This document shows, one piece after another, positions 6,982 through 26,577 of a stretch of 64,000 nt of DNA. Each line of letters opens with the position of its first letter. Within the stretch, counting starts at the first letter, position 1. This stretch comes from a virus: positions 10,143-74,142 of IMG/VR virus record IMGVR_UViG_3300037475_000122; one strand, 5' to 3'. Both the position numbers and the translations under genes were made by a program. The notes below the pieces were generated by a model. The model was not told the origin of the DNA. It made no database searches and saw only the letters and a program-made list of their open reading frames with translations.

Positions 6982-7716
6982 ATGAAACGCTTCCTCGCCA
7001 TCCTCTCCCTTCTCCTCCTCACGGGTTGCAGTTCCCTCATCCCGAAGCCCGTTGAGTTTTTTCAGGACAAGGTCCACAAGATGCCGACTCAAAAGGCGTC
7101 CGAGAAGGAGACGCAGCGGCAGGCCGCGCAGCGAGCAGCGGAAAAGGCCCGGCAAGTGTTGGACGCCGCCCTGATTGAGGATGCATCCACTGCCGTGGTC
7201 AACCCGGCGAAAGAGGTCACTCAGTTGACAGATTCAGTCTCCCGCAGCCTCGGCCCGCCGGTCTCTCCGTCGTCCCTAACCTCCGAGGACTTGTCTCGAA
7301 AGCTCGACAAGGCAATCGCGAAGCTGAATCAGCGCCTCGACGAATTCAAAGCGGACAACGACGAGAACGCCGGGAAGAAAATCGAAGGCTCCGGGGCCTT
7401 CAGTGTCCCTTACTTTTTCTACATCGCGATTATCGGATTCGTCGTCTTCGTAATTTTTCTCGTGCTGAAGACGTTCGTTCATGTGGCGGCTGCGGGCAAC
7501 CCCGCTGTCGGAATGGGTCTTCAGGCCGTCCAACTCGGAGGCCGAGGCGTTGCCGCGCTGGCTAAAGAAGTGATTCACGGCGGCGAAATTTTCAAAGAAA
7601 AAATCGCGGCGGAGATGCCGGAATTCCGCGAGAAGATTGAGGCGCTGTTCTCTTCCGCGCACAAGGAAGCGCAGTCCCCGGATACTCAGGCGGCGGTTAA
7701 GAAACTCCTTTCATAA
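6982..7716 (+). CDS. Lipoprotein, u-spanin-like
   Basis: Lipobox LLLTGC, coiled coil, then TM segment YFFYIAIIGFVVFVIFLVL. Confidence 0.55.
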   Translation: MKRFLAILSLLLLTGCSSLIPKPVEFFQDKVHKMPTQKASEKETQRQAAQRAAEKARQVLDAALIEDASTAVVNPAKEVTQLTDSVSRSLGPPVSPSSLTSEDLSRKLDKAIAKLNQRLDEFKADNDENAGKKIEGSGAFSVPYFFYIAIIGFVVFVIFLVLKTFVHVAAAGNPAVGMGLQAVQLGGRGVAALAKEVIHGGEIFKEKIAAEMPEFREKIEALFSSAHKEAQSPDTQAAVKKLLS

Positions 7717-7717
7717 T

Positions 7718-8860
7718 ATGTCTTGCTCCTCTTGTAACGGTGCGAACCAAGCCGAGTGCGAGCGCAATTGCTGCGCGGGCGGTCGGAACAATGGGTCCAT
7801 TCAGGGCTGCACCCCCTGCCAAACGTGTCCCCCGGCGAGCGCCGATTGCGAATCGCTCCCGAGCGCGTTGGAGAATTTCACCCAGCAGTTTTTCGGCGAG
7901 GTTCAGAAGACCGTGGTCAACGGCGTGGTGACGTGGACGCTGCCCTGCAATCTCGGCGTTGGTCTCCCCGGCAACCCTCGCGCGAATCAGGAGGGTTTGG
8001 CCTGCTACTTCCTCCGGCTCTTCCGTGACGGAATCATCGGACTCACCGGCCCCAAAGGCGACACGGGCGACGCAGGCGCGGACGGCCACAATGCCTACAC
8101 CCAGACGACTACGGCGTTCACCGCGCCCACGGTTGGCACCCCGCTCGTCGAGTTCAACGTCATCCCCGGCCCGCTGCTCTCCGTCGGCCAAACGATTTTC
8201 ATCCCGCGTATCGGCTGGCTGGAAATCACCAACATTTTTCAGAACACGACGGTCTTTGCGTCGCTGCTTCAACTCGTCTCGAATCCCATCGCCACGTCCC
8301 CGCCCGGCGCATTGGTTTTGCCTACGGGTCCACGCGGTCTGCCCATCAAAGGCGACACGGGTCCGCAAGGTGCGAAGGGCGACACGGGCGCAACGGGCGC
8401 AACCGGGGCAACGGGCGCAACGGGCGCAACGGGCGCAACCGGCCCGGCGGGTGCCACGGCTACGAACGCGAACGCGGAAGTCGTCGGAGGCGCGACGGAT
8501 TACACGATGACGGCGGTTTACGCCAAGGTCGATTTCGGCGCGGCGGACCTCGAAGTGACGCTCCCCACGGCGGGAAAATATCTCCTCCTCGTCAACATCT
8601 CCGGCGTGAACAACTCCGGCGCGACGCGCGAGTGGGACTTCAAACTTTTTGACAACACGGCTGCGACTGACGTGCCGAACAGCGAGGTCCCTCGCTCCGT
8701 GGTCGTCAGCACTCTCGCGACTCAGGTGACCCTGATGTCGATTTACAACGCCCCGGTGGACAACACACTGATTCAAGTCTTCGCGGCAACGAGCAACGCA
8801 ACGGCGACTCAAACGCTTTTCTATACGTGGTCAAAAATCATTTACATCAAGCTTCAGTAA
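7718..8860 (+). CDS. Collagen-repeat fibre protein with Cys-rich N-terminus
   Basis: Start MSCSSC at 7718; G-X-Y runs; beta-rich C-terminal domain. Confidence 0.75.
   Translation: MSCSSCNGANQAECERNCCAGGRNNGSIQGCTPCQTCPPASADCESLPSALENFTQQFFGEVQKTVVNGVVTWTLPCNLGVGLPGNPRANQEGLACYFLRLFRDGIIGLTGPKGDTGDAGADGHNAYTQTTTAFTAPTVGTPLVEFNVIPGPLLSVGQTIFIPRIGWLEITNIFQNTTVFASLLQLVSNPIATSPPGALVLPTGPRGLPIKGDTGPQGAKGDTGATGATGATGATGATGATGPAGATATNANAEVVGGATDYTMTAVYAKVDFGAADLEVTLPTAGKYLLLVNISGVNNSGATREWDFKLFDNTAATDVPNSEVPRSVVVSTLATQVTLMSIYNAPVDNTLIQVFAATSNATATQTLFYTWSKIIYIKLQ
8384..8443 (+). repeat. 9-bp tandem repeat encoding (GAT)n collagen
   Basis: ACGGGCGCA units. Confidence 0.9.
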
Positions 8861-9066
8861 GCACCCGGCCTCTAATCAAGGACACTGAGGGTGACTTCTC
8901 CGGGCGTTGTCGAAAGCGCGTCGGAATTCGGGACCTCGACAAGATTCACCGAACCTTGCCGGAGTTCCAGACTGAGAACGATGACGAGGAAGTCTTGCAG
9001 GACGAGGACGGCCTCGCGATTCTCGACGAACAGACGGCCGGATACATTTACGACAACCTTCGATAA
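8827..9066 (+). CDS. Small acidic virion-associated protein (start uncertain)
   Basis: Fills the gap between the two fibre genes; LQDEDGLAILDE motif; no in-frame ATG. Confidence 0.5.
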   Translation: MVKNHLHQASVSTRPLIKDTEGDFSGRCRKRVGIRDLDKIHRTLPEFQTENDDEEVLQDEDGLAILDEQTAGYIYDNLR

Positions 9067-9069
9067 TTT

Positions 9070-10242
9070 ATGGCAAAAGTTTCTGATTACCCGGAAGAGC
9101 TAGGCGCAAACCCCGAGGGGTTTTTGTTCATGGCTGTTCGGCAACCGGACGGCAAGTTCAAGACGAAGAAAATCGCGCCTGACCGCGTGGGCGCGCAAGG
9201 CCCGGTCGGTCCCGGCGGCGCAACTGGCCCCACGGGTGCGACGGGCGGAGTTGGCCCGGCCGGTCCTGCCGGTCCCGCAGGCCCTACCGGCGCGACGGGC
9301 TCTCAGGGTCCCGCAGGCACGAACGGCACCAACGGAACGAACGGCACCAACGGCACCAACGGAACGAACGGCACGAACGCGACGGTCGTCGGCGAGATTC
9401 AAAACTACGACGGCATCGTGTATGAGAATTTCGATGACTACTCCGCTGGCGCAATCGCCACTCTCGACAAGGGCCTCGGCTGGGATGACAACGGCATTTG
9501 CACCGGCGCGACCATCGTGACGAAGACCAAGGCCGGGAATGGGACGTCTCCCACGGAGAAGCGATTGTCCATCGACAACGGGGAGTATATCCGGAAAATG
9601 CCATGGGGCGACGGATGGAATCGCCTGCAAATTTTCATTCAGTTCCGCGTGGGCAGCGTGGCCGCAGCGTTCACGGGCCTCGGGTATCTCGGCATCTGTT
9701 CCGGGCAGACCAACACGGCCGGGACCGCAGCGACGGACAATTTCGTCGGCCTCGTTTTCAACAAGGGGGTCAACGGCTGGACATTTGCAAACGGCACCCG
9801 CGTGGACTACACGGGATTTGCGTCGGGTCAAACTTTCATTACTCGCCGGGGCAACACCGATTCGAGTTGGGGCGGCACCGCCGGGTCCGACGGGCGCAAG
9901 TATTCCGTCACCGAGGGCTACACGTCCATTCTGATGCTGGACCTACAGCGCCCGGTTTTTGCGAACGACGCTTCGTCCGTGAATTACGACGGCTCCGTCC
10001 GCAGCACCGATTTGACTCACGTCGAATTTTCTTCGGCGAAGACGGCCCTTTGGAACTTGCTCCACAATGACGACCTCGTTACCAGCGGTGCGGCGGTTCG
10101 CGTCATCGGAAGCGGCGTGGAAACCCCTCCGTCGGTCGCGTTCGACCAATCGACGGGCAAGCTCGATACACTGAACTTCGTCTGGCCCGTGGCCGGGAAG
10201 CAGTTTGAAATCGCCGCCATCGGCGTCCACAAACTCTATTGA
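9070..10242 (+). CDS. Collagen-repeat fibre protein
   Basis: MAKVSDYP N-terminus, about 20 G-X-Y triplets, beta-rich C-terminal domain. Confidence 0.75.
   Translation: MAKVSDYPEELGANPEGFLFMAVRQPDGKFKTKKIAPDRVGAQGPVGPGGATGPTGATGGVGPAGPAGPAGPTGATGSQGPAGTNGTNGTNGTNGTNGTNGTNATVVGEIQNYDGIVYENFDDYSAGAIATLDKGLGWDDNGICTGATIVTKTKAGNGTSPTEKRLSIDNGEYIRKMPWGDGWNRLQIFIQFRVGSVAAAFTGLGYLGICSGQTNTAGTAATDNFVGLVFNKGVNGWTFANGTRVDYTGFASGQTFITRRGNTDSSWGGTAGSDGRKYSVTEGYTSILMLDLQRPVFANDASSVNYDGSVRSTDLTHVEFSSAKTALWNLLHNDDLVTSGAAVRVIGSGVETPPSVAFDQSTGKLDTLNFVWPVAGKQFEIAAIGVHKLY
9316..9378 (+). repeat. 9-bp tandem repeat encoding (GTN)7
   Basis: GG(C/A)AC(C/G)AAC x7. Confidence 0.9.
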
Positions 10243-17541: not shown

Positions 17542-19128
17542 ATGCCCGGCATCGCCTCAGACCGTTCTCCCGGAATTCAGATTGGACCCATCGCGTCCAT
17601 CGGAAGCGACATCACTCCGACGCCTGCCGTCGGCGACATGATGGATGCTTTCCGTTCAGGCTTCATCACCGTTGACGACCTGAAGAAACGCGTGAAGCAG
17701 GAGGCGTTGGACACCGACGCCATGAAGACCCAACTTCAGGCCGGGGACATTCAACGCAAGCTCGCGCCCGGCGCGGCGGAGAACGCACTCGCGCAGCAAT
17801 CGCTCACGGCCGACCAAATCCGGGCCGCTCAGGCGGTTCTCCCCGGTGCCACGAAGTTGACTCTCGGCGGACAGACGCTCGCCCAACAGGAGCAGGACCG
17901 TCAGGCCGCGCTCACGAGCGACGACGTCACCATTCATCAGAAGGCCCTTGAGGACGCGACGAAACGACAATACATCGACACGTTCGGCCACGAGCCGCCC
18001 AAGTCGATTGCGATTCCCAACCCCAAGCCGGTGGACCCGTTCGACGTGTGGCTCGAAAAGGAGCACGGTGCGGATTTGCAGAAGCGAATCAACGAATTCG
18101 ACCCCGGCGTCCCGGACCCGAAGGAACTCGAAGCGACCATCACGGAGAAGGTCAACAATTTCAAGAGTGGGTATCCGCTGAATTCCCGCGAGGACAACAT
18201 CGAGCGCGCGAAGTTCGCGAACCAACTCGAAGAGCAGGCGAAGAACGTCCCCAACCCGGACGCCCTCCGCGCTCAGTTCGCCAATCAGGCCGCGCAGGAA
18301 CTCCGCGAGAACCCGGCCATCCGGACTCAATACGAAACCTACAAGCTCGAACAGTCGAACGCGAAAGACAAGGTCGTTCTCGGCACGCCGGAGCATACGG
18401 AAATCATGCGCCAGCGGATTCAGGACGCGCAGGACAAGGCCGCGCTCCGAGCCGCGAAAATCACCGCGCTTCCCAAAGTTTTGGAAGAGCAGGCGACGCT
18501 CCCCGGCAAGCTGGCTCAGAAGGAAGTGGAGAACAAAGGCAAAGCGGCAGGCGATGTCTTGCTGGAACTCCACAAGAGCGAGTCGTTGAAACGTTTCGAG
18601 CCTCAGTTCGAGGCGTTCGAGAAGGTGGACTCCATCCGCAACAGCGGCCGACCGCCCACAAACGCCGACGACATCGCGGTTCTTTACGAGTTCGTCAAGC
18701 TGCTCGACCCCACGTCGGCCGTCCGCGAAGGTGAAGCCAAGCTCGCGCAGTCCACGGTCCCCGGGGTGAAGGCGATGTATAACAAGGTCCTCGGCCTTTT
18801 CACTGACCACAATAAAATCATGGACCCGCAGGCGCGCGAGTCGATGTTTCAGACGATGGACACCCTCCGGGACGGCGCAATCAAAACCGTCGCTCCCGAA
18901 ATCAAGCGCATCTCGAACATCGCCATCGACCGGGGAGTTCCGCTCGACCAAGTTTTTTCCGGACCCTATCAGGCCATCCTCACGAAGAACGGCCGAGGTC
19001 CCGGCGCGGCTCCGGCTGGCAACCTCCCGCCCCCGGGCGGCTCCAAACGGGTCATCCCGTCGGAAGGCCCATATAAGGGCAAGACGTTGGAGTGGGACGG
19101 CGCACGGTGGACTCTTATCGGCCCTTGA
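17542..19128 (+). CDS. DNA ejection / internal virion protein
   Basis: 528 aa helical; D..VLYEFVKLLDPTSAVREGE motif. Confidence 0.6.
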   Translation: MPGIASDRSPGIQIGPIASIGSDITPTPAVGDMMDAFRSGFITVDDLKKRVKQEALDTDAMKTQLQAGDIQRKLAPGAAENALAQQSLTADQIRAAQAVLPGATKLTLGGQTLAQQEQDRQAALTSDDVTIHQKALEDATKRQYIDTFGHEPPKSIAIPNPKPVDPFDVWLEKEHGADLQKRINEFDPGVPDPKELEATITEKVNNFKSGYPLNSREDNIERAKFANQLEEQAKNVPNPDALRAQFANQAAQELRENPAIRTQYETYKLEQSNAKDKVVLGTPEHTEIMRQRIQDAQDKAALRAAKITALPKVLEEQATLPGKLAQKEVENKGKAAGDVLLELHKSESLKRFEPQFEAFEKVDSIRNSGRPPTNADDIAVLYEFVKLLDPTSAVREGEAKLAQSTVPGVKAMYNKVLGLFTDHNKIMDPQARESMFQTMDTLRDGAIKTVAPEIKRISNIAIDRGVPLDQVFSGPYQAILTKNGRGPGAAPAGNLPPPGGSKRVIPSEGPYKGKTLEWDGARWTLIGP

Positions 19129-19153
19129 CGGTTGGACAGGTGAGGGGAACCTT
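19125..19153 (+). promoter_or_regulatory. Late-class leaderless promoter
   Basis: TTGACG-N17-AACCTT-N5-ATG(19159). Confidence 0.75.
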
Positions 19154-19158
19154 CCCCT

Positions 19159-22100
19159 ATGCCCGTTCCGATGACGCCCGTGCCGGTTGATTTCGACCCG
19201 ACGACCACTCCGTTTACACCTGTCCTCGACGCGGCGTTGTCCGGGGCTTCTCCCGTCAATCCGGCTGAGCCGTCCAAAACCCCGGTCCTTGACCAAGCTC
19301 TCACCCCCGCGCCCATTGCGACGCCGACCACTCCGGCGTCCGGCCCCACCGTCGTTGACTTCGACCCCACGACCACGCCGTTTACACCCGCCCCCGAGCC
19401 GAAGAAGGCCGTCATTTTCGACCCGACCAAGCAGGCACACGACAAAGTCTTTTCCGTCGCGGATTTCAAGGCCCTCCCGCTCGACCAACTCGACAACGAG
19501 AAGCAATTTGAGCCGACAGACTTCGGATTCCAACACGAGGACGAACTTAACGCGGACCCCGAAGCGAAAGCGAAGTTGCTTGAGCTTTACAAGCTCCGCA
19601 ATCAGCCGTTCCATCAGACCCGCAAGTTTCTCGCGCAGCCTGCGGGCGACATCGCCAAGCAAACGCTGCTCGCGGGAGTTCATGCGCCCGGCAAACTCAT
19701 CGGCGGCGCGTGGCATGTCGGCGGCGACATCGTCAAGGGACTTTGGAACGCGGCGCTCAACGCCAGCGGGGCCATCGGTGCAACCGGGCTCGCCGGACTT
19801 CAGGCCGTCACGGGTGCGAGTCCGCAGAAGGTCAACGAAACTCTCGGCATGGCGGGAAGCATGGGCAGCGAACTTTTGTCCGGGTTTGAGGCTCAGTCCA
19901 CGTCTGAGGCCGGGCTTGGCCGTCGCAGCTTGCGGGCCGTCGGCGAAGGCGTCGCGGCGCTCGACCCAACGGGCGCGGTCAAGGACATCACCGGGCTGAA
20001 ATCTTTTTCGGAATTGTCCCCGGAAGAATTGAAGGCGCGCTTTGACAGCGACGTGCAGGAAAAACGCGCCGTTCAGGACGCCGTCAAGGGGACCGGCGAA
20101 ATGGTTCGCGCAATCGCGGGCAGCGAAGAGGAATTGAAGCAGGCCGGAATCACCATCGACACCGCCAAGGTTGAGAAGCTGATGCCCGCAACGAGTCTCT
20201 TGAATTTCATCCCCCTCGGCGAAGGTCTCGCAGTGGGCGCGGTCGGAAAAGTCGGCGGGCGGTTCGTCGTCGAGAAGGTCGCGCAGGCAACCACACCGCA
20301 GCAAGCCAGTCTTTTCATCCGGGCGGTCAATCAGGGCGCGGAACTGGCAGGCAAAGCAGCGAAAGCGGGCGGCGAAGCGTTGGAGACGGCCGGGGGCAAG
20401 CTGCGCGAGAACGTTTTCAAACCGCTTCACAACCTCGGCGACGTTTCGGCGGTCCTCGCCGGTTCCGGCGGGCACCTCGGCGTCGGCGCGGGCATCGCTG
20501 CGGTTACGAAACTCACCCCCAAGGCGCTCGAACTTACCGGCCGGGCAGTGCAAAAGGCTGCTCCGTTTGTCGCAACGGGCGCGCGTATCGCTGCGGACTC
20601 GGCTATTGAAGCGGGCAAAGGCTACGCTCACGGTCTGCTCTACACTCTCCCGTTCATGGTTGGCGCGACGCCGACGGAGCAGGAAGGCTTGCTGAATGTC
20701 GCGGGTCTCGCGGGCGCGGTGCGCGGCGGCGTTCGTGCAACCGGACTCACCGGCCAAGTCGTCGGCTTCAAAGCTCAGGAAGCCCTTGCGAAGAAAATTT
20801 TCGAGCACGTCGAGCAGAAAGAACCGCCAGCGGTCCCGGACTACGGCACCGATATTTATCTCGACGCTCAGTCGCGGGTGAATGCGGCGAATCTCCCGAA
20901 GGCTCAGAGCAATCTCCTCGGCTGGGCGAAGCACATGTTCAAAGACTCCGGCGTTGAGTGGCACCCGGTCACCGACGCTCAGATGATTCAGCAGACCGGC
21001 GGGCAGAGTGGGCGCGGGTTTGCGGTCAAGCTGGGTCAGACTATCGCCCCCGACGGCTCGACGAAACCTCTCGTCCGGATTTTTCTGAACGGCGACGTCG
21101 AAGCATTGCCTCACGAAATGCTCCACGCTCTCGGCAACATCGACGCGCCCGGCTATAGCGATTTCGTCAAGACGGTGAACGATTCGCTCACGACCCGCGA
21201 GCGCCAAACGTTCGAGCAGATTTACAACACGGTCCAGAACGGCGGGCTTCCCGAGGCCCAATGGAAAACCCGGCTCTCTCCGGAAAAGGTCAACGAGGAA
21301 GTCGCCGCTGAAATCTTTTCTCGCGTCATCCTCGGTCAGGATTTGTCCGGAGTCAAGCCCACGCTCGCGCGCAAGGCCGCGCTGTTTACGTCGAACCTTC
21401 TCGAAAAAATGGGAATCCCGCTGGGCGACGTGAACGTCATGCAGGCGAAGGATTTTAATCCCAAGGCCGACCGCCCCGGATTTTCAACCCTCGGCGTTCG
21501 TCCGACTGCCGACGCGACCATCATCAGCCAGAACTTCATCAAGGGACTTTTGAACCACCTTGAGAACAACGGCGACCTACTCCCGAATTTTCAACGTCCC
21601 TCGCTCTTGAAAGGCGGCGCTGTGACCGGCGGCACGTCTCTCATCAAGCCTCGCCCCCGCACTCCTGCCCCCACGCCCGGGGCACCCGCTGCTCCGGCCG
21701 CTCCTGCAAATCCTGCAACCCCTGCGGCTCCCGCCACTCCCTCGGCCGGTCCTTCAACTCCTACGACGCCGACGCCGCTCCCCACGGGGCCGACTCCGTC
21801 GCCCAAGCCTCGCAACATCCGCACCACGGAAGCAAAGCAAAACGATTTTGCGGCTCAGCGCGCCGAAGTCACGAACGTTGACAAAGCGACCGACGCGGCA
21901 GCGAAATCGGCCGACGCGAATACGGTCAAGCACGTCGCGGACATCTCCAAAGTTTTGGAGTCCGGCAAAGGCGTTGTCGAACTCGAATATCTGTCGGTCA
22001 AGGACACCGGCAATGCGAACGCTCCGACGACTCGCACTCCCCGGCGCGATGCCCAAGAGGCTGCATACATCGCCGAGGGAATGGGCGCGGCTCCGGCCGA

Positions 22101-25100
22101 CGTCCGGGACCTCGCGCAGAAGGTTACCGTGCCCGTCCGCTGGGAAGTTCAGGGCGGGAAGCCGCAACTTATCGCGATGTCTCTCGACAAGGTCGTCGCC
22201 AACGTCGCGCAGACGGTCAAGGACGTTGTCGCGAGCAAAGTCGAAGGCAAAATCCCCTACGAGATTAAGGACGGCGCGCTGACGGATGCTGCGTGGCATG
22301 ATGTCGTGTCGGACCTTCAGGACTACGCGGAGAATCAGTCGAACGGCTTCCGAGGCGACGGTCAGAAACTCACGCGCCCGACTGAAGACATCGGCGCTTC
22401 CATCCCGGCCGAGAATCCGGCATACAGCCCCCGCATTCTTTCGGAGCAGAAGGCGAATTTTCTGAACTACATTCAGGGCTTGAATCCGCCGCTGACCGCG
22501 CGCGAAGTCAAAGGCGTGACCCCCGGCAACGTGAAGGGCCAAATCATTGCCGAAGTCAACAAGCGGACGCCGGAGAAGCCCGCCGTCATCCGTCCGAAAG
22601 ACATCCAGAAGCAGACATTCAAGAGCGGCCGGGAGATTCGCGAAACGAATCCGCTCCGCAACGAACTCGCGGCGGCTGGCGTGGACCCTCGGAAACTCAT
22701 CGAGGTCACCGAACGCATCGACCCGTCGCTCATCGCGAAAGTTACACCGCGCCCCGACCTGAATTTTAAAGCGCCGGTCACCGACACCATTCGCGGCGGC
22801 TTCCTCCCCGGCGGCAAGGAATTTTTCAAGCACAACACGGTCGATGAAATCGGCGAGGCCGTCTCGAAGGCGTCCCCGGAAGAGTGGCAGAAGCTTTCGA
22901 GCGAGATTGGAAGCCTTACAACGGGCGCGTATCAACTTGGCGTCAACCTCAAGGACGTCGCAGACGTGGCAAAACTTCGCGCGCTCGAAACGAAATTCAC
23001 TGAGGCTTATCAGGCGGCGAAAGGCGAGAAGGATTTCGACGCGATGATGCTGGCGGCGACGAAAAAACAATTCGTCACCGAGGCGCTTGAGACGGCCACG
23101 GGAATGAGCCCGGGCAAACGCGAAACCATCGCGCGCCAACTCGGCCCCGACTGGCAACCGCCTTTTCCTGAAGCCGCCAAGCCCGAGGGTCAGCTTCTCC
23201 CGAAGACTGAATCCGCGCAGAAGCTTTCAACCGAAGGTTTTGATTTCCGCATCTCCGGCCAGCCCGGCGTCCGCGCCGTCACGGTTTTGAAGGACGGCGT
23301 TGCGGTCGGCGAGTTCCAATCGGCACAGCGCGCTCCCGGCACGGCTGAGATTTCAAACGTGCTGTTGAAGAAAGAGGCGCGCGGCACGGGGGCGGCGGAA
23401 GCGGCCTATCGCGAACTCCTCGCGCAGTTGCAGGCCGACGGCGTCACCAAGGTTGAAGGCACCGTTGTCGCTCCGCAACCGCTGGCGATTCGCCGGAAAA
23501 TCTTTGGCGGCTTCGACAAGCTCGAACTGAACGGCGAGCCGGTCAGCATCGACGACGCGCTCCACGCCGCGAACGAAATCGCGACCTCCCGCGCGCGGGA
23601 CATCACGAACATCGAGGCGGTGAACGAAATTCCCGTTGACAAGCAATTTCTCCCCGGCGGCAAGGACGAACTCAACGGGCTCGCGTTCAAGGAATTTTTC
23701 TCGAAGGTCTCGAAGGGCGAGTTCGGCAAGTCGAAAGTTCCGTGGGTCCCGGTCACCAACGTCGAGAAGCAAAAGGATTTTCTCCAAGCCGTGCAAGAGC
23801 ACTCGGGGAACTTCGATGAGCATATCGCGAAGTCGATTCCGACCTACCGGGAGACGCAGCTTCGCAAGGGCACCGCAATCATCGCGCTCGCGGGCGACGG
23901 AGACTTGGCCGTGCTGGACATCGGCGGCAGCGAAGGCTCATGGGACAAGGCGGTCACTCAATTGTCCGGCGGCAAGGTCACGACGGTTACGGTTGACCCG
24001 AATCCGGCGATGTCGGACTTTTTTCACGAGAAGAGCAAGGTCCCCGGCGCTCAGCACGTCACGGCTGCATTTCGCGAGGGCTTCGAGGACGAAGGCAAGC
24101 ACATCCCGGCGTTTGACTCGACGAAGAAATTCGACGTCGTCAACGAGTCGATGACGTTCCAGTTCATCAACCCCGACCGCGCGGGCCAAGTTGCAGAGGT
24201 GAAGCGACTGCTCGCCCCTGACGGCTTGTTCATCACTGACGAGAAGCTGCGCGACCCGAAGTGGGCGGAGAACGAGGCGAAGAAAGACAAGGATTTCAAG
24301 TCGGTCTATTTCTCGGACGAAGAGTTGAAGGCGAAGGATAAAGTCGTCGGCTTCCAACAGGCGAAGCAGGAGACCAAGACCGTGGGCATGATTGACAACA
24401 TGGTCACGCCGGAACAATACGAACAGATTCTCCGGGACCATTTCAAATTTGTCTCTCAGTATTGGGACAGCGGCAACTTCAAAGGCTACGTCGCGTCTGA
24501 CGACCTCTTGAAGCTTCAGAAATTTCTCCGCGAAGTCGGCGACACGTCCTCCGAGTTCAGCACTCAGAAGACTCCGCGCGCCGTTCCGAACGTCCGCGAG
24601 CAGGGCGAGAACTCGCTCCTCACTCAGCAACGGCTCCTAGCGGGCCAACTGCTCCCGAAACAACGCGAGCCGCTGAGCCCGGAAGACGTCCAGCGGAAAG
24701 CCATCAAGTCTCCCGCTGTTCGACTCGACAACGGCCGTGTCATCGAAGGACCGATTCACGCGATGGCGATTGCCAAGGCTCTCGACGAGGCCCCGAACTA
24801 CGAAGGCAAATTCAAGAGCGGATTTACAACCAACGAAGGGGAATTTCTCGACAGCAAAAAGGCTCTCCTCCGTGCCGAGGACATCAAGCAAGTTCAGAAG
24901 GGCAAAGGGCTCGCGCAGTCGTTGGGCTTCCTTGAATCGAAGGAGTTCGAGAAGAACCGAAACTTCCTCCCCGGCTCGACGGGCTGGATTCTCCCCAACC
25001 AGAAATTTGTCCCGCTGGCGCAGTCGTATCACGAACGCTACCTCGCGGACGAGTCCAAGGCGCTCAACAAAAAGTTCGGCACCAAGTTCTCGGCGACGGC

Positions 25101-26577
25101 GGACATCAATGAGCGGTTGAAAGCCTTGAACGACGGCTTCGTCCGCATCCGTGGCGGATTCAACGGCGGCGGGTCGATGAACATCGAGTTGAACGCCAAG
25201 TTTTTCACGGGCAAGACCCGGAAGGCCGTCGAGAATTTCCTTGAGGACCACGCCGACGACATCGACAATCTGAACATTTCCCTTTTGAACGACAAGGGAC
25301 AAATCGTGGACTCGACGAGCGCCAAGGTGTTTGAGTTTGACGGGCCGGAACGGGTGAACGCCCTGCTCGAAGCCGTTGACGGATTGCGCGCCCGGCCCGG
25401 CCGGACTCACGGCGGTCAACTGCTCCCCGGCGGAGACGAGATTTTGCCGGGCCTGAACATCCCCAGCGAAGAACGCGCGCAGCAATTGCGCGTGAAGGCT
25501 CGCGTGGCGAAGTCGAAGGAGAAATTCCCCGAGGCCATCAAGCTTCAGTATGCCAAGGACGACGCGGGCAACTTCGTTCTCGGCGAGGACGGCAAGCCGA
25601 AGCCTCAGACCGTGGAGTATGGCTTCATGAACACGCCGCTCGCGCGCGAGGCCGCAAAGAACCTCAAGGGCGAAGACCGGATTCGTGCAGTCGAGCAGGC
25701 ATTGGGGCGGAAACTCGTCACCGAGGCGAAGGACGCGCTCAAACGACCGGACCTTCAGGCCGGGGCGAAGTGGTATTCGACCGCACGCACGCGGCTCAAA
25801 GGTTTGTTCGGCGAGGACACCAAGTTTTTCACGGAACTTCTCGGGGCCACGAGCGCCCGGACTCCGGTCGAAACGAATTATCGCTTCGCGCTGGACGCTT
25901 ACAACCAATTCAAGCAAGGAAAGTTTGACGACCTCATCCGGAAATATCGGGAAGGCAAATCGAATTGGGACGCAGGCAACATCAAGGATTTTCTGGCCGC
26001 AACCGGAAACCAAAACCCGACGCGCGGGCAGTATCTCGATTGGTGGGTCCAGACAAACGACATCAGCCCCGTGCAATCGAACGGGAAGAAGTTCGGCGCG
26101 AACTCCCGGCAAGTTCTCAAGGTGCTCGACGGCTCATGGGCCGAGGAAATCGGCGGGCCGAAGACCCCCAACTTCGCGGGGAACCTCGCGGGCACCACGT
26201 TCGAGGCAACGATTGACGTTTGGGCCGCGCGTATGTTGCACCGGCTCGCCAACGAGGGCAATACGAAGCCGTGGCGCATTCTGGCCGAGAACGAAACCGG
26301 CGTCGTCGATGAGGACTTCGCAATCGGACAGGCCGCTTATCGTCACGCCGCAAAGGAACTCGGCATGAAGCCGGACGCGCTGCAAGCCGTCTTGTGGTTC
26401 GCCGAAAAAGACTATTGGGAAAAGAAAGGTTGGACACGCGGGGCCGGGGCGGAGAAGTCCGACTTCAACGTGCTGCTCAAAGAGACCGAGCCCGCAAGCG
26501 GCGGCACGATGAAAATGAAGTCGGCACAGAACGACCTTTTTTCCGTCAAATCCTTAGAGATTAAAAAACGCAAATGA
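19159..26577 (+). CDS. Large polyvalent ejection protein (zincin peptidase, GNAT, CmoA-like methyltransferase, glycosylase-like C-terminal domain)
   Basis: 2472 aa; HEMLH..EEVAAE; EARGTGAA; VLDIGGSEG; KWY..TS..N..GPK..NF..TIDVW..QAVLW. Confidence 0.8.
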   Translation: MPVPMTPVPVDFDPTTTPFTPVLDAALSGASPVNPAEPSKTPVLDQALTPAPIATPTTPASGPTVVDFDPTTTPFTPAPEPKKAVIFDPTKQAHDKVFSVADFKALPLDQLDNEKQFEPTDFGFQHEDELNADPEAKAKLLELYKLRNQPFHQTRKFLAQPAGDIAKQTLLAGVHAPGKLIGGAWHVGGDIVKGLWNAALNASGAIGATGLAGLQAVTGASPQKVNETLGMAGSMGSELLSGFEAQSTSEAGLGRRSLRAVGEGVAALDPTGAVKDITGLKSFSELSPEELKARFDSDVQEKRAVQDAVKGTGEMVRAIAGSEEELKQAGITIDTAKVEKLMPATSLLNFIPLGEGLAVGAVGKVGGRFVVEKVAQATTPQQASLFIRAVNQGAELAGKAAKAGGEALETAGGKLRENVFKPLHNLGDVSAVLAGSGGHLGVGAGIAAVTKLTPKALELTGRAVQKAAPFVATGARIAADSAIEAGKGYAHGLLYTLPFMVGATPTEQEGLLNVAGLAGAVRGGVRATGLTGQVVGFKAQEALAKKIFEHVEQKEPPAVPDYGTDIYLDAQSRVNAANLPKAQSNLLGWAKHMFKDSGVEWHPVTDAQMIQQTGGQSGRGFAVKLGQTIAPDGSTKPLVRIFLNGDVEALPHEMLHALGNIDAPGYSDFVKTVNDSLTTRERQTFEQIYNTVQNGGLPEAQWKTRLSPEKVNEEVAAEIFSRVILGQDLSGVKPTLARKAALFTSNLLEKMGIPLGDVNVMQAKDFNPKADRPGFSTLGVRPTADATIISQNFIKGLLNHLENNGDLLPNFQRPSLLKGGAVTGGTSLIKPRPRTPAPTPGAPAAPAAPANPATPAAPATPSAGPSTPTTPTPLPTGPTPSPKPRNIRTTEAKQNDFAAQRAEVTNVDKATDAAAKSADANTVKHVADISKVLESGKGVVELEYLSVKDTGNANAPTTRTPRRDAQEAAYIAEGMGAAPADVRDLAQKVTVPVRWEVQGGKPQLIAMSLDKVVANVAQTVKDVVASKVEGKIPYEIKDGALTDAAWHDVVSDLQDYAENQSNGFRGDGQKLTRPTEDIGASIPAENPAYSPRILSEQKANFLNYIQGLNPPLTAREVKGVTPGNVKGQIIAEVNKRTPEKPAVIRPKDIQKQTFKSGREIRETNPLRNELAAAGVDPRKLIEVTERIDPSLIAKVTPRPDLNFKAPVTDTIRGGFLPGGKEFFKHNTVDEIGEAVSKASPEEWQKLSSEIGSLTTGAYQLGVNLKDVADVAKLRALETKFTEAYQAAKGEKDFDAMMLAATKKQFVTEALETATGMSPGKRETIARQLGPDWQPPFPEAAKPEGQLLPKTESAQKLSTEGFDFRISGQPGVRAVTVLKDGVAVGEFQSAQRAPGTAEISNVLLKKEARGTGAAEAAYRELLAQLQADGVTKVEGTVVAPQPLAIRRKIFGGFDKLELNGEPVSIDDALHAANEIATSRARDITNIEAVNEIPVDKQFLPGGKDELNGLAFKEFFSKVSKGEFGKSKVPWVPVTNVEKQKDFLQAVQEHSGNFDEHIAKSIPTYRETQLRKGTAIIALAGDGDLAVLDIGGSEGSWDKAVTQLSGGKVTTVTVDPNPAMSDFFHEKSKVPGAQHVTAAFREGFEDEGKHIPAFDSTKKFDVVNESMTFQFINPDRAGQVAEVKRLLAPDGLFITDEKLRDPKWAENEAKKDKDFKSVYFSDEELKAKDKVVGFQQAKQETKTVGMIDNMVTPEQYEQILRDHFKFVSQYWDSGNFKGYVASDDLLKLQKFLREVGDTSSEFSTQKTPRAVPNVREQGENSLLTQQRLLAGQLLPKQREPLSPEDVQRKAIKSPAVRLDNGRVIEGPIHAMAIAKALDEAPNYEGKFKSGFTTNEGEFLDSKKALLRAEDIKQVQKGKGLAQSLGFLESKEFEKNRNFLPGSTGWILPNQKFVPLAQSYHERYLADESKALNKKFGTKFSATADINERLKALNDGFVRIRGGFNGGGSMNIELNAKFFTGKTRKAVENFLEDHADDIDNLNISLLNDKGQIVDSTSAKVFEFDGPERVNALLEAVDGLRARPGRTHGGQLLPGGDEILPGLNIPSEERAQQLRVKARVAKSKEKFPEAIKLQYAKDDAGNFVLGEDGKPKPQTVEYGFMNTPLAREAAKNLKGEDRIRAVEQALGRKLVTEAKDALKRPDLQAGAKWYSTARTRLKGLFGEDTKFFTELLGATSARTPVETNYRFALDAYNQFKQGKFDDLIRKYREGKSNWDAGNIKDFLAATGNQNPTRGQYLDWWVQTNDISPVQSNGKKFGANSRQVLKVLDGSWAEEIGGPKTPNFAGNLAGTTFEATIDVWAARMLHRLANEGNTKPWRILAENETGVVDEDFAIGQAAYRHAAKELGMKPDALQAVLWFAEKDYWEKKGWTRGAGAEKSDFNVLLKETEPASGGTMKMKSAQNDLFSVKSLEIKKRK

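Follow-up and report, generated by a model that had tools for sequence, protein, structure and literature searches.

Polyvalent proteins are giant phage proteins that join unrelated effector-type domains to a zincin-like domain, and their zincin-like metallopeptidase (MPTase) has been predicted to autoprocess the chain (Iyer et al. 2017, PMC5512222). The paper that described them names no cleavage site or linker motif, and the word 'linker' is absent from it (PMC5512222). We found no description of a site motif for polyvalent or ejection proteins in the literature searched. Here we describe such a candidate motif, a short tripeptide at the borders of the cargo modules of P0001, a protein of 2472 amino acids (aa) encoded by the giant gene of an uncultured phage. 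The gene lies in a stretch of 64,000 nucleotides (nt), hereafter the window, that corresponds to bases 10143-74142 of IMGVR_UViG_3300037475_000122, a 74,142 bp IMG/VR record rated complete. All nucleotide positions below refer to the window.

An earlier reading of the DNA letters (the sequence-only reading) had compared P0001 with the polyvalent class (Iyer 2017), and the domain mix and zincin-like core of the protein fit there. The protein is very large and combines several unrelated enzymatic or effector domains (GNAT, methyltransferase, DUF7178), and its model contains the zincin core expected of the class, consisting of a three-stranded sheet, an HExxH helix and a second Glu helix. Unlike the polyvalent proteins described, the P0001 family has a defined junction tripeptide that covaries with lineage, a constant carrier architecture and a zincin-like domain that gave no Pfam peptidase match here. 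The class and its proposed zincin autoprocessing were known (Iyer 2017); the readable, lineage-private junction code is new.

The closest functional analogues are MARTX toxins and viral polyproteins. MARTX toxins of Vibrio consist of a carrier, an in-cis protease and an effector array, in which cuts in the linkers release the effectors, and their repertoires are shuffled between strains. The MARTX protease is a cysteine protease that is activated by inositol hexakisphosphate and cuts after Leu; we know of no lineage-specific site code in these toxins, which, unlike P0001, are secreted by bacteria and are not phage virion proteins. Picornavirus 3C and the pp220/pS273R system of African swine fever virus (ASFV) rely on the virus's own protease and one short consensus per junction, and co-evolution of site and protease is expected. 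P0001 likewise has one consensus per junction in flexible linkers, and its sites covary with lineage. Those polyproteins are made of replication or core structural proteins in fixed order, whereas P0001 carries accessory-effector-like modules in free order and belongs to a tailed double-stranded DNA (dsDNA) phage. CdiA and Rhs toxins have a VENN or DPxGL motif that bounds a swappable toxin/effector region (PMC3482391). Only one domain varies in these toxins, at the C-terminus; it comes with an immunity gene, and the joint shows homology at the DNA level. In P0001, by contrast, the junctions are numerous and internal, immunity genes are absent and DNA identity stops at the motif; VENN-like DNA homology was not found at its junctions, where only 9-17 nt of motif codons are shared.

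We propose that P0001 is a polyvalent virion-module protein built as a polyprotein, in which a conserved carrier of ~1200 aa would be followed by a string of independently folding cargo modules. In the carrier, segments rich in Pro/Thr and in Gly/Ala would accompany a zincin-like metallopeptidase domain and a conserved domain that is WYL-like. Each junction would be a disordered linker with [FL]-L-P, and the carrier's own zincin would recognise this tripeptide and cut the string into free modules.

A tripeptide at the borders of the cargo modules

The features of P0001 are as follows (window coordinates, strand, description; pLDDT, predicted local distance difference test).

19159..26577, + strand: giant open reading frame (ORF) P0001, 2472 aa, final gene of the late/structural + strand block
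19159..20814, + strand: N-terminal carrier, aa 1-552, with a Pro/Thr-rich start followed by Gly/Ala-rich long helices
20815..21417, + strand: zincin-like domain, aa 553-753, from alignment invariants, the model and weak fold matches
21424..21825, + strand: Pro/Ala/Thr-rich disordered linker, aa 756-889, pLDDT <50 (model residues 607-740)
21577..21585, + strand: a seventh LLP, aa 807, at the start of the disordered Pro/Thr linker, absent from the list of the sequence-only reading
21829..22800, + strand: best-conserved carrier domain, aa 891-1214, pLDDT 85-96, ending in ..APVTDTIRGG right before site 1
22801..23193, + strand: site 1, FLP (22801-22809), and module 1, a helical bundle, aa 1215-1345 (helices aa 1221-1328)
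23194..23646, + strand: site 2, LLP (23194-23202), and module 2, GNAT fold, aa 1346-1496 (PF00583; 2vez_A, Z 10.8)
23647..24648, + strand: site 3, FLP (23647-23655), and module 3, CmoA-like methyltransferase fold, aa 1497-1830 (PF08241, phrog_4752)
24649..24963, + strand: site 4, LLP (24649-24657), and module 4, a small domain without known fold, aa 1831-1935
24964..25419, + strand: site 5, FLP (24964-24972), and module 5, a confident alpha/beta domain with a TGWxLP motif, aa 1936-2087
25420..26577, + strand: site 6, LLP (25420-25428), and module 6, DUF7178, aa 2088-2472, plus the stop codon

The motifs named by the sequence-only reading were all recovered at the places claimed, with its coordinates counting one residue earlier: HEMLH at aa 652 (21112-21126), EEVAAE at aa 713-718, and six [FL]LP that start at aa 1215, 1346, 1497, 1831, 1936 and 2088 (22801, 23194, 23647, 24649, 24964 and 25420). 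As an example, ...VDKQFLPGGKDE... spans one of sites 1-6. Whole P0001 contains seven [FL]LP where 1.68 are expected from composition (Poisson P = 0.0017), a count reached by 25 of 20000 shuffles of the protein; between aa 1201 and 2472 there are six against 0.67 expected (P = 7e-5). Elsewhere in the 74-kb genome, [FL]LP occurs at background level only in the other ORFs, virion ORFs included. The excess is moderate within the window alone and overwhelming once homologues are added. The LLP at aa 807 was considered as a true site and rejected; it is conserved in no aligned homologue and is probably due to chance.

A first-pass word-indexed search returned 66 homologues of 1.4-4 kaa, mostly on contigs of ~70 kb, and IMG/VR contributed 36 loci. 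A profile of the zincin domain detected 467 clusters at 50% identity, with the domain nearly always at aa 450-750 of proteins of 1.3-3.6 kaa. The family is large and wholly uncultured. Close homologues mostly carry 5-11 xFLPx motifs with a median spacing of 151 aa, the first of which is always RGGFLP at aa 1100-1200. The residues around the motif are hardly informative, G, K, E, S and P being frequent there. In 104 of the 178 long family members, a single [FY]xP tripeptide is present four or more times at Poisson p < 1e-3. Eight proteins (P0008, P0015, P0016, P0017, P0021, P0029, P0031 and P0035) have tandem double sites 14 aa apart, FLPGxETDxAxRxG[FL]LPD, which often stand directly before module family 5 (~259 aa) and sometimes do not, as in P0016.

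Three independent lines (homology breakpoints, module families and structure models) place the tripeptide at module borders. In an all-against-all BLAST comparison, 30% of the internal ends of high-scoring segment pairs fell within 3 aa of an FLP and 51% within 10 aa, compared to 3% and 9% of random points. In P0001 the breakpoints cluster at aa 1215-18, 1340-50, 1497-1509, 1809-49, 1938-41 and 2086-2100. Cutting 82 proteins at their own tripeptide alone yielded 390 modules, and these fell into 24 multi-member families with narrow lengths (126, 151, 120, 203, 259, 322 and 386 aa). The order of the modules is permuted between proteins. By family number, the arrays read 1-3-8-4-2-0 in P0001, 8-1-3-4-.-2-19-9-0 in P0003, 1-8-3-4-0 in P0004 and 4-5-1-3-3-2-14-0 in L017. 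Breakpoints and module parsing both indicate that the motif occurs once per junction and almost nowhere else. Cargo exchange, which the sequence-only reading had suggested, is borne out in the homologues, where modules are permuted and swapped exactly at the motifs.

Two AlphaFold2 models, covering aa 150-1349 and aa 1340-2472 with a mean pLDDT of 68 and 73, were compared with the motif positions; the alignment was 1-3 rows deep over the methyltransferase and module 4. Confident domains are separated by stretches of pLDDT <50, and sites 3-6 are contained in such stretches. In the second model, site 3 occupies residues 158-160 of a low stretch at 136-172, site 4 residues 492-494 of 461-513, site 5 residues 597-599 of 571-599, with pLDDT ~95 from residue 600, and site 6 residues 749-751 of 741-756. 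Site 1 overlaps such a stretch (model residues 1066-68 versus 1067-71), and site 2 lies within one in the first model and at the edge of one in the second (7-9 versus 1-6). Since 23% of residues in the second model have pLDDT that low, five of five sites would be reached by chance at ~6e-4. Comparison of the predicted domains with the motifs had been set beforehand as a possible refutation, and no site lies inside a folded domain; pLDDT dips and homology breakpoints agree with the earlier claim that the motifs mark domain borders. We are close to certain that the tripeptide is a selected module-border signal.

The cargo itself is diverse. The sequence-only reading had recognised a GNAT, a methyltransferase and a glycosylase-like last domain, and Pfam and fold matches uphold these identities, with the methyltransferase being CmoA-like. 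Module 1 belongs to module family 1 (46 members, median 126 aa) and has a weak MazG-like match (Z 6.1). Module 3 matches CmoA (4iwn_A, E 2.4e-6 by Foldseek) and 8k5l_A (Z 11.2), and phrog_4752, to which it also matches, is a tRNA methyltransferase; it is predicted to be a class I Rossmann methyltransferase closest to CmoA / cmo5U34 enzymes. Module 4 falls in module family 4 (37 members, median 120 aa) and module 5 in module family 2 (41 members); an Atlas search with module 5 yielded no match. Module 6 scores 47.1 bits against DUF7178 (PF23802; gathering cutoff 27) over aa 2197-2415. It represents module family 0, whose 54 members are last or next to last in nearly all arrays that have it. An Atlas search with module 6 gave just DUF7178 itself, which also occurs as stand-alone phage proteins. 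Its likeness to the 8-oxoguanine glycosylase fold is tentative, coming from a single, helical match to the Tm1821 8-oxoG glycosylase (3n0u_A, Z 9.4, rmsd 4.1, 181 residues aligned). Homologues carry ART-PolyVal, InPase, GNAT, SLT, DUF3293 and L5_gp82-like modules, cargo typical of polyvalent proteins. In one distant homologue an SLT domain is found at the N-terminus; this and the place of the giant gene at the end of the late structural block are the only pointers to delivery into the host along with the DNA.

Concerted evolution of the tripeptide

The first site can be aligned family-wide, since it stands behind the conserved ..APVTDxIRGG. Lineages differ in the tripeptide found there (FLP, LLP, FKP, FSP, FMP, YMP, FQP, FQA, FSV, FSA or FLT), and within a protein this tripeptide is repeated at the later sites, such that a table of first-site against downstream tripeptides is diagonal for FLP, FMP, FQP, FSV, FKP, FSP and FQA. 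FLP lineages have on average 4.6 further FLP and no FMP or FQP, FMP lineages 3.2 FMP and 0.1 FLP, and FQP lineages 3.0 FQP; for FKP, FSP and FQA, each represented by one protein, the further copies number 4, 6 and 6. Among 106 further representatives, the most enriched of the 8000 tripeptides in the C-terminal part was F[MLQSA]P or YMP in about half, with FMP being the commonest. Position 1 of the junction tripeptide is F, L or Y only, at all sites family-wide.

In a tree of the conserved carrier domain, the FKP protein (P0009) and the FSP protein (P0028) nest within the FLP clade, and these two switches are therefore recent and complete. The same GNAT module is preceded by a tag that depends on the lineage: KFLPRTDAG, KFQPKTDSG, KFMPLTDAG or VFKPSTEKG. 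Agreement within a protein together with difference between lineages implies, from these alignments, a single lineage-specific recogniser. This concerted evolution, which the sequence-only reading missed, is the strongest argument for a recogniser.

Candidate columns of the zincin domain that track the middle residue of the tripeptide lie at aa 684-688, beside Tyr689, and are phylogenetically confounded leads only. The zincin domain of P0009, the sole FKP protein, carries E627D and A666E at positions that are conserved in its FLP relatives. In sequence terms these changes could possibly match the charge of the middle Lys, a lead from n = 1.

The zincin-like domain as candidate protease

Every full-length homologue contains ..FLN....LpH[ED]xxH followed ~60 aa later by E..AE.F, and the zincin-like domain is the sole protease-like element common to all full-length members. 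Across 34 aligned domains H652, H656, Y689, E714 and G752 are invariant and A717 and E718 near-invariant (Tyr689 codon 21223-21225; Glu714/Glu718 region 21298-21312). The domain was modelled with pLDDT 80-94 as helices, a three-stranded sheet (model residues 450-455, 472-480 and 486-495), the HExxH helix (501-512), the Tyr helix and the helix of the Glu714/718 pair (559-575). The zincin topology of the model and the invariant H, H, Y and E bear out the earlier assignment of the HExxH region as zincin-like.

An exhaustive VIA-align structural comparison, with the 1200-residue multidomain chain as query, gave Z scores of 5.9-6.4 over 140-159 aligned residues. The matches on aa 553-753 were PPEP-3 (9g0j_A, Z 6.4, 149 aligned), PPEP-2 (6fpc_A, Z 6.3), lethal factor (1yqy_A, Z 6.3) and the Certhrax lethal-factor-like domain (4fxq_A, Z 5.9); they are weak but consistent in pointing to PPEPs and lethal factor. 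In PPEP-3, H153 and H157 are ligands, Y190 contributes the oxyanion function, E197 on the next helix is the third ligand, and the S2' pocket takes its shape from the residue next to the Tyr (PMC12828418). PPEPs read a P3' Pro via an aromatic side chain, which is a Trp in PPEP-1 (PMC12828418). P0001 shares with PPEP-3 the order His-His, Tyr, Glu, with the Tyr 33 residues past the second His in both, and with family M34 (PPEP/lethal factor) the edge strand before the HExxH helix and a Pro in the substrate motif, which is putative in P0001. It differs from M34 in its weak fold similarity (Z 6.3-6.4) and in giving no sequence-profile match, either in Pfam at E up to 1 or with profiles A3 and A5 against the PDB. 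PPEPs, unlike P0001, are small, are secreted and cleave the bond that joins two prolines, and about a third of the P0001 family has Asp in place of the Glu. The protease domain is structurally nearest to family M34 without being a demonstrable member.

We consider it probable that the tripeptide is a proteolytic site, and we give the reading in which the zincin cuts these sites in cis a probability of roughly 0.58. That proteolysis occurs at all, which protease acts and at which bond, and that the protein is packaged and injected are inferred. Cutting would take place inside the capsid or following delivery into the cell. By analogy with the PPEPs, the most likely register places the scissile bond directly before the aromatic residue, so that P1' would be F, L or Y, P2' the lineage-specific residue and P3' Pro.

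Several observations weigh against cutting by this domain. The fold matches to known zincins are just middling (Z ~6), and the geometry of H, H, Y and E is deduced from sequence order and helices alone. P0001 contains no Pfam peptidase family even at E up to 1; the sequence profiles A3 and A5 matched the PDB only by low complexity or chance, with no peptidase among the matches; and Foldseek of the N-terminal model against the PDB returned nothing significant and no peptidase. A search of the same model against BFVD also returned nothing significant, the weak top rows being uncharacterised or polyvalent phage proteins. Among the 50,697 INPHARED records of cultured phages, megablast and tblastn found no relative of the carrier; the single match was a stand-alone tRNA methyltransferase of Maribacter phage Panino that resembles module 3. 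In about one in three FLP-bearing homologues the motif reads HDAGH, the catalytic Glu being replaced by Asp, and yet 5-9 FLP sites are retained. This clade comprises P0012, P0016-18, P0020-24, P0029, P0032-33, P0036, P0038 and P0046-47, and L007-L011 and L013-L018, and the E/D state of HExxH toggles more than once on the tree. For these arrays, either Asp can serve as the base or the sites are read by a different protease. A binding partner without catalytic activity is another possible cause of concerted change in a short motif. A complex predicted between the zincin domain (A5) and 36 linker residues about site 3 scored 0.01, which is evidence neither for nor against cutting.

The full FLP arrays kept by the HDxxH clade speak for a different protease, a separate phage protein or a host enzyme, as the reader of the tripeptides, and a divergent one could hide among the genome's many ORFs without a family. 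We hold this to be unlikely. The repeated lineage-specific switches, some among close relatives, need a co-evolving partner, and a conserved host protease is unlikely for that reason; the motif is missing from the capsid and other virion ORFs, which sets them apart from prohead protease targets; and all full-length members have one protease-like element in common, the zincin-like domain. We rate as rather improbable that the tripeptide stays uncut, serving as a linear motif that binds a common partner (the portal or capsid interior, a chaperone or a host factor) or as a hinge for threading through the tail. The concerted change is also compatible with a co-evolving binding partner, and the vRNAP of phage N4, which has an MPTase domain, is packaged unprocessed (PMC5512222). 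However, occurrence once per junction and almost solely there is the pattern of polyprotein sites and not of docking motifs, a binding motif that stands alone would be short at three residues, and this reading gives no function to the invariant H, H, Y and E in the neighbouring domain.

The sequence-only reading had also considered a DNA-level recombination joint, in which microhomology would serve the swapping of cargo cassettes. Its DNA words are indeed repeated: each stands at exactly two places in the window, 22804 and 23650 for CTCCCCGGCGGCAAGGA and 24646 and 25417 for CAACTGCTCCC, such that 11-17 nt are common to two pairs of sites, and modules do get exchanged at the motifs. Yet the identity ends at the motif codons (9-17 nt), the flanks are unrelated, and the level is about that of codon bias; for the LPGGK pair, identical peptides and codon bias alone give P ~0.017, with no flank identity. 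Nine nucleotides are too few for homologous recombination. The same module families carry different tripeptides by lineage, and all sites in one protein agree, whereas recombination alone would scramble the tags and not homogenise them. Different tripeptides on the same modules therefore point to selection on the peptide and not on the DNA, and the DNA joint, which these data do not support, is very improbable as the chief role of the motif. That a common tripeptide happens to cluster in so long a chain would agree with the moderate excess in the window alone (P ~0.002). This reading is refuted by the family data and next to nil in probability, as the pattern is replicated in >100 family members and coincides with breakpoints and pLDDT dips.

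Carrier, gene setting and meaning of a junction code

The remaining parts of the carrier offer some hints to its role. In the model of the N-terminal carrier, aa 150-255 and 393-479 have low confidence and helices span aa 470-552. These Gly/Ala-rich helices (aa ~470-552) weakly match helices of membrane proteins, and together with the Pro/Thr-rich N-terminus they form a possible packaging or membrane-insertion region. VDFDPTTTPFTP occurs twice in the Pro/Thr-rich N-terminus, at aa 10-22 and 66-78 (window 19186-19392). At aa ~908-1214 (21880-22800), the best-conserved carrier domain includes a WYL/Sm-like barrel that matches PafBC (6sj9_B, Z 10.7) and BrxR (7qfz_A, Z 9.5). Further barrel matches were CapW and DriD, and the fold senses ligands or binds nucleic acid in the matched proteins.

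The giant gene is preceded by the terminase, which lies ahead of the window, by collagen-like tail-fibre genes and by a minor coat protein. Downstream of it, the opposite strand encodes a DNA polymerase, exonucleases, a helicase and a sigma-like factor. Most ORFs neighbouring the giant gene, and most of the genome, lack a family assignment, and no prohead protease was recognised at the usual place between portal and capsid. Two features of the surroundings are located as follows.

7637-10242: two ORFs with collagen-like tail-fibre matches, in the late block upstream of the giant gene
19125..19153, + strand: promoter-like TTGAC-N18-AACCTT, read directly, with the ATG (19159) 5 nt past the box

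F, L and Y are destabilising residues of the bacterial N-end rule. If the cut precedes position 1, the released modules would bear N-degrons. We see some appeal, at long odds, in a wider picture in which the family would use a private protease-substrate code, [FY]-x-P, that evolves fast through repeated resetting of x. Cleavage ahead of the aromatic residue would give each released effector an F, L or Y start, and the injected enzymes would be short-lived 'hit-and-run' proteins cleared by ClpS/ClpAP.

Zincin autoprocessing of polyvalent proteins was predicted in 2017 with the site never named, which made the idea hard to test; here there is a concrete candidate site that can be read from sequence. 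About ten natural specificity variants occur on similar scaffolds (FLP, FMP, FQP, FSP, FKP, FSV, FLT, FQA, FAP and YMP), and they open the processing hypothesis to a peptide-cleavage and cross-specificity experiment. They could also yield an orthogonal set of sequence-specific proteases. With the tripeptide as a guide, giant metagenomic phage proteins can be divided by the hundreds into their cargo modules, many of them of unknown function. In conclusion, the polyprotein logic of RNA viruses may also serve tailed dsDNA phages for the delivery of mixed effectors.

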